Below are positions 9,198-13,605 of a stretch of DNA of 31,153 nt, one piece after another. The stretch spans positions 1-31,153 of the IMG/VR virus record IMGVR_UViG_2671180603_000011. One strand, given 5' to 3'. The stretch is from a virus (Duplodnaviria; Heunggongvirae; Uroviricota; Caudoviricetes). Position 1 is the first letter of the stretch. Every line of letters begins with the position of its first letter. A program made the translations under genes and the position numbers. The notes under the pieces are model-generated. The model saw only the letters and a list, made by a program, of their open reading frames with translations. It was not told where the DNA came from and made no database searches.

Positions 9198-9508
9198 TGG
9201 CCGTTATCTATATCGCTGGCCCCATGACGGGGAAGCCTGATTTCAACCGCACCGCCTTCACCATGACGGCGACCCGCCTGAGGATGCAGGGTCATACCGT
9301 ACTCAACCCCGCAACACTCCCTGACGGGCTGAGATACAGGGACTACATGCTTATCGGGAGCGCCATGCTGCACTGTGCCGATGTGATTTACCTGCTGGAT
9401 GGCTGGGAGGACTCGCCGGGGGCAAAAGAGGAACACGCCACCGCCCTGAAACTGAATCTGATCATCTCCACACCAGAAAGCCGTAAGGAGGCCAAATCAT
9501 GTTTCTGA
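9197..9508 (+). CDS. DUF4406-like protein (nucleoside 2-deoxyribosyltransferase-like fold)
   Basis: N-terminal MAVIYIAGPMTGKPDFN matches the characteristic IYIAGPMTG opening of this family (recalled); ATG overlaps the TAA of the methyltransferase (ATGTAATGG). Confidence 0.55.
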   Translation: MAVIYIAGPMTGKPDFNRTAFTMTATRLRMQGHTVLNPATLPDGLRYRDYMLIGSAMLHCADVIYLLDGWEDSPGAKEEHATALKLNLIISTPESRKEAKSCF

Positions 9509-10053
9509 AACCAATGGGGGTACCAGGTAAAGCACCGAAGCACGTCAGTGCCTGGACACAACAGGAAGACGAACTGCTTATCTCGCTTTATCAGGATCAC
9601 AGCACATGGCAAATGGCTGAACGACTTCAGCGAACCCGCAGCGCAGTGATGCACCGGATTCTTTTTTTACGTAATCGCGGGTTGATTGGTCGCAAGAAAA
9701 AAGCACCGCTGAGTGCAGAAGCCATCGCCTTTCTCATCAAAAACCGTCACGCAAAAACCGCACGGGAACTGGCCCGGAAGGCGGGATGCAGCGAGTGCAC
9801 CGTGAGGTACACACTGCATAAACGGGGTTACAGCCTTAAGAAATGCGGCGAGAGCCACCATTGCACCAGATACAGCGATCGTCTGACTGAGCTGGTTACG
9901 GAGTTACGCGACAGACGCAACATGACGTTCTGCATGATCGCGAAACACATCAACATCACGATGCAAATGCACATCAGCGATGATACGGCGTTTCACCTCT
10001 ACAACCGCCGGACCGCCGCCGACGCCCTGCTGTACGAACTGCTGCCGAACTGA
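9499..10053 (+). CDS. Putative DNA-binding protein with tandem HTH/Myb-like repeats
   Basis: 184 aa; three repeats with helix-turn-helix character (W-x17-W Myb-like spacing in the first; TARELARKAGCSECTVRYTL in the second); AAGGAG eight nt upstream of the ATG. Confidence 0.45.
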   Translation: MFLKPMGVPGKAPKHVSAWTQQEDELLISLYQDHSTWQMAERLQRTRSAVMHRILFLRNRGLIGRKKKAPLSAEAIAFLIKNRHAKTARELARKAGCSECTVRYTLHKRGYSLKKCGESHHCTRYSDRLTELVTELRDRRNMTFCMIAKHINITMQMHISDDTAFHLYNRRTAADALLYELLPN

Positions 10054-10169
10054 GTGATCATCATGCACACACAAAAAAACCGCTTGCCATGCCGCAATCA
10101 GTCAGGTTACATTTCCGCTGCACCTCATAAAACGGGTGCCGGGATTGAGACCCCGCTGACAAACGTAGC

Positions 10170-10196
10170 GCACAACCGCGCCAGCGGTTTTTTTGT
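10170..10196 (+). terminator. Rho-independent terminator candidate within the early region
   Basis: ACCGC-gcca-GCGGT stem-loop immediately followed by TTTTTTT (10188-10194). Confidence 0.5.
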
Positions 10197-10240
10197 GCGT
10201 ACCGTATCGTCACACCTTTTTCGCACACGAATTATGGTGG

Positions 10241-10306
10241 GGCGTACAGGGCCGACTTCGGTCGGGCCGGGTTCTGCGTTTGCCGGTAGTCTCAACCCTG
10301 TACGTC
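10241..10306 (+). other. Predicted structured element: 9 to 11 bp closing stem enclosing two hairpins
   Basis: CGTACAGGG (10243-10251) is the exact reverse complement of CCCTGTACG (10296-10304); enclosed are CCGAC-ttcg-GTCGG (UUCG-type tetraloop) and a CCGG...CCGG hairpin. Strand and function unknown. Confidence 0.3.
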
Positions 10307-10373
10307 TCACCACCCCGAGTTTGAGACCTCTGGATGGTGAGTTTTCAAAACTTACACACGTAGAGGCCACACC

Positions 10374-10601
10374 ATGGCAAACCGCAAACAACAGCGCGCC
10401 TACGCTGCGCGTCGTCACATCCAGACTGAAATCAACCGCAGACTTTTCCGCGCCTTCCGCGTCGCGCATATCATGCACATCAATATGCTGCATGAGCACA
10501 GTCACGCACTGTCAAACACCTATTCCGCCGCTGTTTTCAGCTATCTGGCGGATGATCTGCGCGGGCTGCGGGACCTCATTAACCAGCACTACCACCACTA
10601 A
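10374..10601 (+). CDS. Hypothetical small basic protein
   Basis: 75 aa ORF with AGAGG upstream; conflicts in frame with the long low-complexity ORF at 10054..10683, which I consider spurious. Confidence 0.3.
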   Translation: MANRKQQRAYAARRHIQTEINRRLFRAFRVAHIMHINMLHEHSHALSNTYSAAVFSYLADDLRGLRDLINQHYHH

Positions 10602-10669
10602 TCAACATCCCGAAGCCATCCCGCATCCATACGCGGGAGGCTTCCGCACGTCCGTTTCCGGAGGTTCTC

Positions 10670-11083
10670 ATGAAGAGCGTTAAGGGACTTTCAGATATTC
10701 AGGATTTTTTTAACTGGATGTGGGCGGTGGATCCACGCCTCGCTTCCCGTCTCAATGACCTGCACGACTATTACCGCCGCGCCTGTAAACAGGCCGCCAG
10801 CAGCGCCACCACATACGGTGACTTTTCCTTCACCGTTGACGACCGTTACCGCGTGGACGTCAGAGACCAGAACAACAGCCTGGAGCTGGGCCTGTTCCAC
10901 ATCAACGGACTCGACAGCAGTGTTATCAGCTGGTCATCGTCAGAAATGGTGCTCGTTCTGGAAATGACCACCCACAGCGTGGTCGTGAAAGGGATTAAAA
11001 CGGCAGAAGACTTTATCGCTGAATACCAGCGTCTTCTTGTGCTGTACCGGGCTGCATTTCAGAAGGCAACAGCAGGGGAGTAA
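10670..11083 (+). CDS. Hypothetical protein immediately upstream of the replication gene (P2 B-like position)
   Basis: 137 aa; GGAGG five nt upstream of the ATG; position only, no motif recognised. Confidence 0.45.
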   Translation: MKSVKGLSDIQDFFNWMWAVDPRLASRLNDLHDYYRRACKQAASSATTYGDFSFTVDDRYRVDVRDQNNSLELGLFHINGLDSSVISWSSSEMVLVLEMTTHSVVVKGIKTAEDFIAEYQRLLVLYRAAFQKATAGE

Positions 11084-11088
11084 GCGGA

Positions 11089-13605
11089 ATGAGCCATCAC
11101 AACACACACCTGGCGTACCCGTGGAATGCCCCGCTGCCGGTTATTGATCCTGAGACGTTCGGCAGAGCGTTACCGCAGAAGCCAACCGCATTACAACGGG
11201 CAATCCGGGACTACCTCACCGAAGACATTCGCACTGAGGCCCGGCTGGATGAAGAAACCGTGGTCTTCCTGACAACCACGGACAAAGGCAAACAAATTAA
11301 TTCACACCTTCACCGGGACGAAGAGCGGCAGACAAGGTTGGATAAGCTGGCACGACACAGACGCGAAAATCCGCCAACGGAGGTATCGGAAGCGATAGCC
11401 GAACTTCGCGCCCTGCCACCGTTTCTTGCCAGCGTGCTGATCCGCGATCTGGCACGCCTGAACCGGAAACAGCAAAGCGCCCGCAGCAAAGGTGTAAAAA
11501 ACAATAGCGCATACGTGGCCGATAACTTCGTTCGCCGTGGACTGCGCGCGCGCCTGAAACGTATCGAACGGGTTAACGACCGCTTTGCAACGCCGGCATT
11601 CAAATCCAGTGTCATACGCCATCGCCTTGAAGAGCTGCTCATGCTGCCGCAACTCAGCCGCGACAAGATCCAGCGCATCGCCACACTGACTGCGCAGTTC
11701 TTTACCGCAGAATTTGAACGCATATGTGATGAAGTTCCTGAACAGACCGGAAAGAATAATGACAGCCCGGTTATCTGGCTGCTGGCCTACCAGAAGATGG
11801 CACGCATAGCCTTAACGCTGGGCGTGATCCCGCCATACTGGCCGGAACTCGAAATCAGGCACAACCGACGCACACCGCCGGACCCTGAACTGATACCGGG
11901 TGCGGTACTGCGCATCACCTGCGCGACCTGGTGGAACAACCAGTTACGCCACATCGCCGATCTCTGGCGGGAGGAGTTACTGCGTGCCGCCGGCAGAGTG
12001 TCACGTAAACAATCCCCTTATATCAGCCATGAATCACTACTGGAGTTTCGCGAGAAGCGCCAGCGCACCCGTGATTTTCTCAAAAGCTGGGATATTGAAA
12101 ACGAAGACGGCGAGCGCCTGAGTCTGGAGGAAGTGTACTGGGCGGGCCCGGGAAATCCACGCAACCGCCGCAATGAAATGATGGTCTGCGTCAGAGGGAT
12201 GGAGATGGTAGCCGAATTGCGGGGTGACGTCGCATTCTTCATCACGGTAACAGCCCCTTCCCGCTTTCACAGCGTGAACGAAGACGGCAGCCTGAACCCG
12301 AAATACAACGGTGCCACTGTACGCGATACCAGTGATTATCTGGTTTACGACTTCTTCGCAGCCGTAAGAAAAAAAATCAAAAAAGAGGGGCTGGGCTGGT
12401 ACGGCGTGCGAACCGCTGAGCCACACCATGACGGCACGCCACACTGGCATATGCTGGTATTCACGTCCCCTGAGAACGCAGAGCGCATCATCGAAATTAT
12501 GCGCGACGCAGCGATTAAATCAGATCGCCACGAACTGGGGGACGATATTTCGCCGCGCTTTGAATGCGAGAAGATAGATCCGGAAAAAGGGTCGCCGGCA
12601 AGCTATATCGCAACCTATATCGGTAAGAACCTGGACGCCAGCGCCTTCCACAACAATGATCCGAAAACCGGAAAACCTTACGTCGATAAGGAATCCGGGA
12701 AAACCATGGCGGAAACCGTGGAGAACGCCATTGCATGGGCGAGCCTTCACCGCATACGTCAGTTCCAGTTTTTCGGCATTCCGCCCCGCCAGGTGTGGCG
12801 AGAACTCCGCCGCCTTGCAAGCCAGATGGAGCGCAACCCGGCATCACCGAAGCGACTCGATCATGGAGATATTGACGCCATTATGGCCGCCGCAGACGTG
12901 GGGTGTTTTGCCACCTACATCATGAAACAGGGTGGCGTGCTTATTCCACGCAACCAGTATCTGGTCCGCACCGCATACAAAACCGCAGACGAAGCTAATG
13001 ACTACGGCGAATTCCCGCAGCGCATCTACGGAATTTGCGCCCCGTCACTCGGGGAACGGTACACCATCTGCACCCATCCGGATGAGTGGAAACTGGTCAG
13101 AAAAGAATCTGACGCCGACAACAGCACGGACGAGGGTTTTGACCTTCGGGGCGGCTTCGCCGCACCTTGGACTCGTGGCAATAACTGTCCCGGTGACGAA
13201 AAAACAGCCGGAACCGGCACAGAAAACAGGCAGCGTGGGTCGCGGCTGACGCTTCCGGAAAGCGGCCTGGCGCACTGGTTGCAGACGTTAACCCGTCACG
13301 AGCGGAAACAGCTCATCAGACAGCTTAAAAATCAGCCGCCCACCACGGATACCGGACAAAATAACACCAGACCAGCATCAGACACCCCTGTCAGGGTGGA
13401 GGTTGTCGTGCCTGTCGACACCACGACCATCGCACAAATCACCCGCGAACTCGACGCGCTGGGTGTGCAGCTGCCTGACGCAGCCATTATTTCCGTGAGT
13501 AACGGTGCCCGCGTTCGCCCGGGCGACGGGCGTATCGCGTACTGGAGCGCCACAACCCGCCGTATCGTCATCACACAGGAGTCGTCAGCGGAGGTAAGAT
13601 CATGA
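11089..13605 (+). CDS. Rolling-circle replication initiation endonuclease, P2 gpA-like (HUH superfamily)
   Basis: 838 aa; HUH metal-binding motif TPHWHMLVF (DNA about 12421-12462) and paired active-site tyrosines YIATYIGKN (about 12601-12630) with the Y-x3-Y spacing known from P2 A. Confidence 0.85.
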   Translation: MSHHNTHLAYPWNAPLPVIDPETFGRALPQKPTALQRAIRDYLTEDIRTEARLDEETVVFLTTTDKGKQINSHLHRDEERQTRLDKLARHRRENPPTEVSEAIAELRALPPFLASVLIRDLARLNRKQQSARSKGVKNNSAYVADNFVRRGLRARLKRIERVNDRFATPAFKSSVIRHRLEELLMLPQLSRDKIQRIATLTAQFFTAEFERICDEVPEQTGKNNDSPVIWLLAYQKMARIALTLGVIPPYWPELEIRHNRRTPPDPELIPGAVLRITCATWWNNQLRHIADLWREELLRAAGRVSRKQSPYISHESLLEFREKRQRTRDFLKSWDIENEDGERLSLEEVYWAGPGNPRNRRNEMMVCVRGMEMVAELRGDVAFFITVTAPSRFHSVNEDGSLNPKYNGATVRDTSDYLVYDFFAAVRKKIKKEGLGWYGVRTAEPHHDGTPHWHMLVFTSPENAERIIEIMRDAAIKSDRHELGDDISPRFECEKIDPEKGSPASYIATYIGKNLDASAFHNNDPKTGKPYVDKESGKTMAETVENAIAWASLHRIRQFQFFGIPPRQVWRELRRLASQMERNPASPKRLDHGDIDAIMAAADVGCFATYIMKQGGVLIPRNQYLVRTAYKTADEANDYGEFPQRIYGICAPSLGERYTICTHPDEWKLVRKESDADNSTDEGFDLRGGFAAPWTRGNNCPGDEKTAGTGTENRQRGSRLTLPESGLAHWLQTLTRHERKQLIRQLKNQPPTTDTGQNNTRPASDTPVRVEVVVPVDTTTIAQITRELDALGVQLPDAAIISVSNGARVRPGDGRIAYWSATTRRIVITQESSAEVRS

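Follow-up and report, generated by a model that had tools for sequence, protein, structure and literature searches.

C4-type antisense RNAs are excised from a longer precursor, with RNase P acting at the 5' end, to give a stable RNA of about 77-79 nucleotides (nt). The genes regulated in every C4 system studied are of the anti-repressor or replication kind, namely ant in phage P1, anrP in Gifsy-1, and epsilon together with alpha in P4; antA of N15 is a further example of a C4-regulated anti-repressor. The phage P1 record gives the order promoter P1c4, a1, b1, 77-nt c4, a2, b2 and icd, and we follow its annotation in naming target sites a1, b1, a2 and b2. The difference in specificity between phages P1 and P7 was reportedly placed by Citron and Schuster, in 1990, in the a' and b' elements of C4 and their targets. 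The c4 and c4-a1b1 motifs were described by Weinberg et al. 2010 (PMC2864571), IsrK has been equated with seqA and C4 with the CI RNA (PMC3632133; PMC4825925), and 'IsrK-C4 immunity system' is a published term (PMC3632133). Here we describe an island at positions 10054-10373 of the 31,153-nt IMG/VR virus record IMGVR_UViG_2671180603_000011, the whole of which is referred to as the window. The window is a P88-like (Xuanwuvirus, Peduoviridae) prophage, and the region is 100% identical to Escherichia coli FDAARGOS_943 and approximately 90% identical to phage P88. In our reading, to which we give a probability of about three in four, the island is an IsrK-C4 antisense-RNA 'immunity' cassette of the phage P1 immI/P4 CI type in the early operon of this P2-family prophage. 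The locus carries both an anti-repressor-type gene and a replication gene, the kinds of gene regulated in the studied systems.

Two RNA genes in the early operon

A scan of the whole window with Rfam gave exactly two matches above curated thresholds, and both lie inside the island, which is flanked by a 184-amino-acid (aa) DNA-binding-type gene (9499-10053) and a 75-aa open reading frame (ORF; 10374-10601). A preliminary description of this DNA, made from its letters, had pictured a non-coding island with a terminator followed by a single multi-stem element, and every feature that it named is present where it was placed. The view of a structured RNA holds, but the single element resolves into two RNAs with their own putative promoter and two downstream target sites. 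The features of the island are as follows.

10084-10113, plus strand: putative promoter (-35 TTGCCA at 10084-10089, 18-nt spacer, -10 TACATT at 10108-10113), from a consensus scan
10120-10194, plus strand: IsrK-like RNA (Rfam RF01394, 67.3 bits against a gathering threshold of 50, E 1.5e-12, full match 1-77/77)
10120-10125/10134-10139, plus strand: IsrK hairpin 1
10140-10143/10152-10155, plus strand: IsrK hairpin 2
10145-10151, plus strand: a1 target TTGAGAC, in the loop of IsrK hairpin 2, complementary to a'
10160-10168, plus strand: b1 target CAAACGTAG, complementary to b'
10174-10189 with T run to 10194, plus strand: IsrK intrinsic terminator, also picked up independently by a terminator scan
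10230-10317, plus strand: C4 antisense RNA (Rfam RF01695, 81.8 bits against a gathering threshold of 45, E 8e-15, full match 1-87/87)
10235-10251/10296-10312, plus strand: C4 closing stem P1, 17 bp including G.U
10252-10256/10261-10265, plus strand: C4 hairpin P2, 5 bp, UUCG loop
10266-10270/10283-10287, plus strand: C4 hairpin P3, 5 bp, 12-nt loop
10274-10282, plus strand: b' recognition element CTGCGTTTG, within the P3 loop (12 nt); covaries with both b1 and b2
10289-10295, plus strand: a' recognition element GTCTCAA, in the single-stranded junction from P3 to the 3' strand of stem P1; covaries with a1 and a2
10321-10327, plus strand: a2 target TTGAGAC, a few nt past the 3' end of C4, in the same place as a2 of phage P1
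10355-10363, plus strand: b2 target CACACGTAG, overlapping the first base of the Shine-Dalgarno (SD) sequence GAGG (10363-10366); the ATG is at 10374

The putative promoter is sigma-70-like, with a predicted transcription start near 10120. In alignments it falls on the promoter annotated as P1c4 (P51b) in phage P1 and on the equivalent region of P4. The intrinsic terminator proposed earlier at 10170-10196 is confirmed, with a stem at 10174-10179/10184-10189, a GCCA loop and seven T at 10188-10194; it is predicted to form the 3' end of the IsrK RNA, and b1 ends 5 nt short of its stem. This IsrK is the counterpart of the a1b1 leader of phage P1 and of seqA of P4. The phage P1 leader scores with the c4-a1b1 model (RF03163), whereas the best match to that model in the window (18.3 bits against a gathering threshold of 46.7, at 10107-10159) is below threshold and the isrK model covers the region instead.

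The long-range stem of the earlier account is equally real: CGTACAGGG (10243-10251) pairs perfectly over 9 bp with CCCTGTACG (10296-10304), 47 nt past the terminator, and is the inner part of the C4 closing stem. The two hairpins said to lie within it are likewise found, at 10252-10265 (UUCG loop) and 10266-10287 (12-nt loop). The C4 segment folds at -46.6 kcal/mol with z = -4.96, and none of 200 shuffled sequences was as stable; the opposite strand has z = -2.57. The structure and the Rfam scores are thus far beyond chance. The immunity region of phage P1 matches the Rfam C4 model as well. The C4 RNA of phage P1 is nearly identical to that of the window at both ends (AAUUAUGGUGGGGCGU ... CCACC), and the flanks AUUAU|GG and CCACC are common to the two. 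Alignment to the annotated 77-nt c4 of phage P1 suggests that the mature C4 of the window probably spans approximately 10236-10314 (about 79 nt).

Complementary variation of recognition elements and targets

Relatives of the locus were gathered with the 75-aa protein as query, giving 84 loci (P88, three genomes and 80 IMG/VR contigs). The covariation alignment (A1) comprised 50 distinct sequences, and counts of conservation and codon phase were made in 63 distinct homologues. The island is present in all 84 loci at 81-99% identity, and the block from the promoter to the 75-aa ORF is kept throughout, while in some loci downstream homology stops within the last codons of the ORF. Variation within the island is concentrated in six patches, corresponding to a1, b1, b', a', a2 and b2; little or no change is seen in the promoter, terminator and stems, and both promoter hexamers are 100% conserved, with the sequence diverging upstream of approximately 10064.

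The RNA folding and covariation check that had been suggested earlier was run on this alignment, and compensatory changes back both the stems and the long-range pairings. In the window a1 pairs with a' at 7/7 positions and b1 with b' at 9/9; among the relatives 99.4% and 98.5-99.2% of cells, respectively, are paired, and 4/7 and 7/9 pairs have changed on both sides, a total of 11/16. Within C4 itself, two pairs of stem P1 and two of P2 show changes on both sides, with 99.9-100% of cells paired. Taking the intramolecular stems together with a1-a' and b1-b', 99.6% of cells are paired and 15 pairs have changed on both sides. The covariation score of this whole set is 0.254 against 0.086 when shuffled, none of 500 shuffles attaining the real score, and controls in which the partners were slid are only 38-44% paired.

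The targets downstream of C4 behave in the same way. All 7 positions of a2 pair with a' in the window, 100% of cells are paired and 4/7 pairs have changed on both sides; b2 pairs with b' at 8/9 positions in the window and in 92.5-99.2% of cells among the relatives, with 6/9 pairs changed on both sides. Together, 97.9% of cells in the downstream pairing are paired and 10/16 pairs have changed on both sides, with a covariation score of 0.685 against 0.128 for shuffled sequences (0/500 reach it) and slid controls 36-48% paired. Up to four Watson-Crick pair types occur at single positions. C4 thus covaries three ways, with the leader before it and the sites after it. The alternative raised previously, that the structure is a protein-binding site, found no support.

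Two further complementarities were considered. Pairing of the b' loop with the start-codon region AUGGCAAAC (10374-10382), seen by eye, was rejected, since the relatives differ in b' but not in this region; b' covaries with b2 at 10355-10363 instead. We note also that GUCUCA (10304-10309), in the 3' strand of the closing stem of C4, is in this specificity type complementary to UGAGAC of a2 (10322-10327), a pairing that the lowest-energy fold uses. This match is probably coincidental, since the stem is nearly invariant while a2 varies. Apart from the island, the window contains no further C4 target sites, a and b sites co-occurring in the island only.

The sequences fall into at least 6 a' variants and at least 13 b' variants plus one hybrid, in 25 combinations among the 63 sequences. 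Cognate complementarity is 16/16 upstream in 60/61 sequences and 15-16/16 downstream, against a mean of 10.7/16 for non-cognate partners. Cognate duplexes have corresponding energies of about -27 and -28 kcal/mol and non-cognate ones of -15 and -16 kcal/mol, approximately 12 kcal/mol apart. Individual loci illustrate how such sets change. Locus L051 (219-484) is a recombinant, in which the IsrK targets (a1 TTTCCAC, b1 CAAACGAAG) form only 11/16 pairs with the elements of its own C4 (a' TTGAGAA, b' CTTTGCTCT). Locus L042 (121-403) is a natural recombinant whose b' loop contains an insertion of 17 nt, by which two b' types are fused, and in locus L015 G.U wobble lets one b' serve a b1 and a b2 that are not identical.

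The island lacks a protein-coding signature

The sole plus-strand ORF spanning the island (10054-10683, GTG start, 209 aa) had been judged non-coding on its composition, and the Rfam matches and the flat variability by codon phase bear out a non-coding island with two RNA genes. Across the 63 homologues variability in the island is 0.086/0.098/0.083 at the three codon positions, whereas the neighbouring 75-aa ORF shows the expected third-position excess (0.038/0.048/0.110). A conserved and constrained coding frame was looked for in the homologues and none was found. That the island nevertheless encodes a protein, whether from the 209-aa GTG ORF, from a minus-strand ORF annotated in P88 or from an ORF like orf45 of Gifsy-1 beginning at ATG 10234, is therefore a reading to which we attach almost no credence. 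The plus frame is open in 55/63 homologues, but this is weak and uninformative evidence because the homologue sequences are 81-99% identical. Indels of 1, 2 and 17 nt, and stops, interrupt the frame in 8/63 sequences, the substitutions come as compensatory RNA pairs, and the 209-aa ORF runs into the true 75-aa gene in a different frame. The island has no RefSeq annotation. In the GenBank record of P88 a hypothetical minus-strand coding sequence (CDS) lies across IsrK/C4 (L001:4056-4244, minus strand); on this evidence it is spurious and looks like a legacy mis-annotation. For Gifsy-1, AUG codons within the C4 element do affect expression (PMC4825925).

The ATG at 10234 lies in the C4 5' flank (AAUUAUGG), at the position of the orf45 start of Gifsy-1. 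Its frame ends with TAA at 10681-10683, 11 nt beyond the ATG (10670) of the next gene but one, a 137-aa ORF. It is broken in approximately 13% of distinct homologues and is without coding bias, although translation through the frame may take place. As a separate observation, the CI (C4) RNA of P4 is still covered in RefSeq by a CDS of 137 aa named 'cI gene product, transcriptional repressor' (L087:8168-8584, minus strand), which also looks like a legacy mis-annotation.

An epsilon-like gene and replication gene A downstream

Three genes follow the island.

10374-10601, plus strand: 75-aa ORF, epsilon-like 'derepression protein' (coding signature; phrog_3688, E 7.6e-41)
10670-11083, plus strand: 137-aa ORF, function unassigned (phrog_3237 is listed for the block of this ORF and gene A)
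11089-13605, plus strand: replication gene A, P2-type, 838 aa (PF05840 Phage_GPA, E 2.9e-105)

The 75-aa ORF starts 57 nt past C4, behind a2 and b2. By its sequence it is a homologue of epsilon, the helper derepression protein of P4: BLASTP gives 29% identity over 66 aa (E 4e-7), profile-profile comparison with hhalign gives 94.9% probability (E 4e-8), and close homologues are named 'derepression protein' in RefSeq and GenBank. Homology of this ORF to Icd of phage P1 was considered and dropped, there being no alignment, and the 137-aa ORF was likewise considered as a homologue of P4 orf151 and no homology was found.

The genes upstream of the cassette present a different picture. The 84 relatives become homologous from approximately 10062-10070 onwards, at a mosaic junction directly behind the stop codon of the 184-aa gene; this upstream gene varies, and P88 has a gene for an SPFH-domain protein in its place. 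The upstream genes of the window (ParE-like toxin, Dam methylase, DUF4406 and DNA-binding protein) look like variable early-operon cargo.

Comparison with phage P1, P4 and Gifsy-1 and a model of control

The elements in the window are ordered and spaced as they are in phage P1. In both, a1 is in the loop of the second hairpin, b1 is just 3' of it, a terminator-like hairpin follows, C4 carries b' in a loop and a' in a junction, and b2 is fused to the SD sequence. The geometry of b2, SD and ATG in phages P1 and P4 is that of the window. No homologues of Icd or Ant1 were found by tblastn in the C4 contexts listed, and none of Ant in P88-like loci; the locus shows no counterparts of the icd and ant genes that follow C4 in phage P1.

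By analogy with these systems, the island may work as follows. A constitutive promoter at 10084-10113 would start transcription near 10120, and most transcripts would end at the terminator at 10174-10194 to give an IsrK RNA of about 75 nt bearing a1 and b1. Read-through transcripts would be processed to a C4 RNA of about 79 nt, whose b' loop and a' junction could pair with a2 and b2 on any leader transcript, whether from its own promoter or from the early promoter. Since b2 abuts the SD sequence, this pairing would block translation of the epsilon-like 75-aa ORF. The untranslated RNA would be prone to premature termination, keeping the 137-aa ORF and gene A low in the lysogen, and antisense-dependent termination, with or instead of loss of translation, could also limit these two genes. 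The a1/b1 copy in IsrK would compete for C4, such that the balance of IsrK, C4 and leader RNA would set the switch, and the a and b sequences would define the specificity, or heteroimmunity group.

The preliminary description had raised the possibility that a small structured RNA beside a terminator gates the replication genes downstream. The IsrK terminator and the C4 antisense RNA agree with the first part of this, and gating is expected by homology. Its target requires revision, as the direct target of translational control by C4 is most likely the 75-aa ORF at 10374, while the 137-aa ORF and gene A are presumably affected only indirectly, by polarity or termination.

A possible alternative, though one we consider distinctly less probable than our own reading, is that C4 pairs with a1/b1 and a2/b2 on the nascent RNA and causes transcription to end prematurely, either at the terminator of IsrK or further downstream at Rho-dependent sites, thereby limiting transcription of gene A directly, as summarised for P4 (PMC4825925; PMC3632133). 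The likeness to P4 is extensive. Its leader and CI RNA match both Rfam models (isrK 60.8 bits, C4 74.9 bits), and it has the same order of promoter, hairpin with a1 in its loop, b1, intrinsic terminator, C4, a2, b2 with SD, and ATG. It also has epsilon and the replication gene of the element downstream, so that in both elements an IsrK-like leader and a C4/CI RNA stand upstream of an epsilon gene and a replication gene, the latter of a different family. The closeness of b1 to the terminator stem would also suit such a mechanism. P4 nevertheless differs in that it is a satellite while the window is a complete P2-like phage (portal, terminase, ogr, gene A), in that its replication gene encodes the alpha primase rather than a P2-type gpA, in that its epsilon gene is about 250 nt further on while the epsilon-like ORF of the window directly follows C4, and in its specificity sequences. 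The terminator scan found no terminator-like site between a2/b2 and the ORF. The position of b2 against the SD sequence is that of phage P1, whose record says 'repression of icd ant translation', and on the sequence by itself a termination model is inseparable from the translational one.

Control of the kind studied in Gifsy-1, in which the read-through RNA would be intrinsically silent through cis structure and activated by IsrK, appears unlikely. Gifsy-1 resembles the window in having an RNA of the isrK family, a downstream processed RNA complementary to IsrK and a controlled anti-repressor-type gene; its IsrK and STnc1160 are expressed and abundant in lysogens (PMC7067206). The pairings of these two RNAs, in which the middle of IsrK meets the downstream element, were verified by compensatory mutations, and IsrK in trans raised anrP translation more than 100-fold (PMC4825925). 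The predicted fold of the window RNA has an equivalent feature: the 281-nt read-through RNA folds with z = -4.03, and its lowest-energy structure contains a 24-bp IsrK-C4 helix corresponding to the 'inactive structure A', or helix b-I, of Gifsy-1. In this fold the SD sequence is also partly paired in a predicted local hairpin (CUCUG 10328-10332 with UAGAG 10361-10365). This hairpin was rejected as a functional element, having no covariation support: 10361 varies while its partner is invariant. Gifsy-1 is moreover lambdoid, and the effect studied there acts via an ORF inside C4, the activated orf45 beginning within it, whereas the gene with the coding signature here is a separate conserved ORF that begins after a2 and b2. 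The conservation and covariation of a2 and b2 argue that binding of C4 to the leader matters.

The secondary immunity of N15/phiKO2 and the phage APSE-7 provide more distant comparisons. A BLAST search with the island finds the N15 'cA: secondary immunity repressor' together with a 'C4 antisense family sRNA' of APSE-7 whose annotation includes a' and b' regions. Identity is 68-80% in alignments that cover part of the query, and these are other phage families with other gene contexts.

Several considerations weigh against the model that we favour. The studied homologues differ in outcome: in phage P1 translation is repressed, in P4 transcription is terminated, and in Gifsy-1 IsrK activates in trans. 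Homology therefore does not settle whether control here is positive or negative, nor the level at which it acts, and the three outcomes are indistinguishable by sequence. Transcription, processing, repression and polarity at this locus are extrapolated from phages P1, P4 and Gifsy-1. The lowest-energy read-through fold pairs a1/b1 with a'/b' in cis, over the 24 bp mentioned above, and leaves a2 and b2 free, so that regulation may depend on the kinetics of processing. The promoter fits the consensus at just 9/12 positions, and the match of the 75-aa ORF to the Pfam 'Derepression protein family' (PF25738) scores 25.6 bits, under the curated cut-off of 27. Finally, an intrinsic terminator before the essential gene A demands read-through, which the model leaves unexplained.

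Distribution and repertoires of specificity

The cassette or close relatives of it occur in 1447 of 5426 complete E. coli genomes, 1150 of which carry most of the exact block. We note that the source genome, NZ_CP065615.1, has three places matching the 567-bp query (L086 is one of them), and that other E. coli have up to five. The early regions of P2 and 186 gave no Rfam match while P88 has both RNAs, which makes the cassette a trait of the P88-like group within the P2 family; that it might be a general P2-family feature is ruled out by the same result. We found nothing specific in the literature that places IsrK/C4 in P2-like phages. The cassette is unannotated in the public records checked, being blank in RefSeq for the source genome and covered by the spurious CDS in GenBank for P88. 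Control by the SOS response through a LexA box was also considered, P88 having been obtained by mitomycin C induction, and was rejected, as the LexA-box core CTGT-N8-ACAG is absent from the whole 31-kb window; no tum-like gene was noticed.

A scan of IMG/VR with a generic pattern of the C4 core gave at least 120 loci with at least 125 cassettes. Those listed include at least 49 in P4-like satellites, at least about 22 in P88-like phages and at least 54 in other contexts, nearly all with cognate a1, b1, a2 and b2. Among the matches listed, the repertoires of P88-like elements (at least 29 combinations) and P4-like elements (at least 30) are disjoint. In one contig, L111, two C4 cassettes are separated by 7.6 kb (cores at 250 and 7874), the second followed by distant homologues of the 75-aa ORF (45%) and of gpA (31%). 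The a' elements of its two cassettes, TTTCCAC and GTGGAAA, are mutually reverse complementary. Some a' 7-mers of P4-like and other C4 RNAs also equal a1/a2 target 7-mers of P88-like cassettes, which may be chance.

The hypervariable and reassorted specificity elements, with their 25 combinations, might suggest that the cassette serves in conflict between elements, either with C4 silencing matching P4-like satellites or other prophages, or with the epsilon-like protein derepressing rival P2-like prophages. Such an idea has been raised for lambdoid prophages (PMC3632133), and P4 epsilon is annotated as a helper derepression protein. However, among the at least 125 IMG/VR cassettes listed there is no (a', b') combination common to P88-like and P4-like elements, and cross-complementarity between them reaches at most 13-14/16, against 15-16/16 for cognate partners. 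The window's own specificity, scanned for as an exact match, turned up in P88-like contigs only. We consider this explanation improbable, and cross-immunity with P4-like satellites through shared RNA specificity is unsupported, the matches listed having no specificities in common.

Implications for P88-like phages

The RNA families, the three-site pairing logic and specificity set by covarying sites are already established from P1/P7, P4, N15 and Gifsy-1, and the locus brings no new mechanism to light. Recognition of the cassette accounts for a 'gap' among the early genes of a group of prophages that is common, and predicts that P88-like phages have a heteroimmunity code written in RNA. It also links a helper-type phage to the immunity/epsilon module known from its satellite P4. 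On a more speculative view, which we think rather doubtful, P88-like phages carry a second, purely RNA layer of immunity that gates an epsilon-type anti-repressor and gene A and takes its specificity from two short elements that reassort independently. Such a layer could decide which co-resident or superinfecting P2-like phages and satellites wake each other, and it may in that case be the evolutionary source, or the sink, of the immunity and epsilon module of P4. The main value of the finding lies in correct annotation, in phage population biology and in a clear demonstration, from natural variation, of the RNA code.

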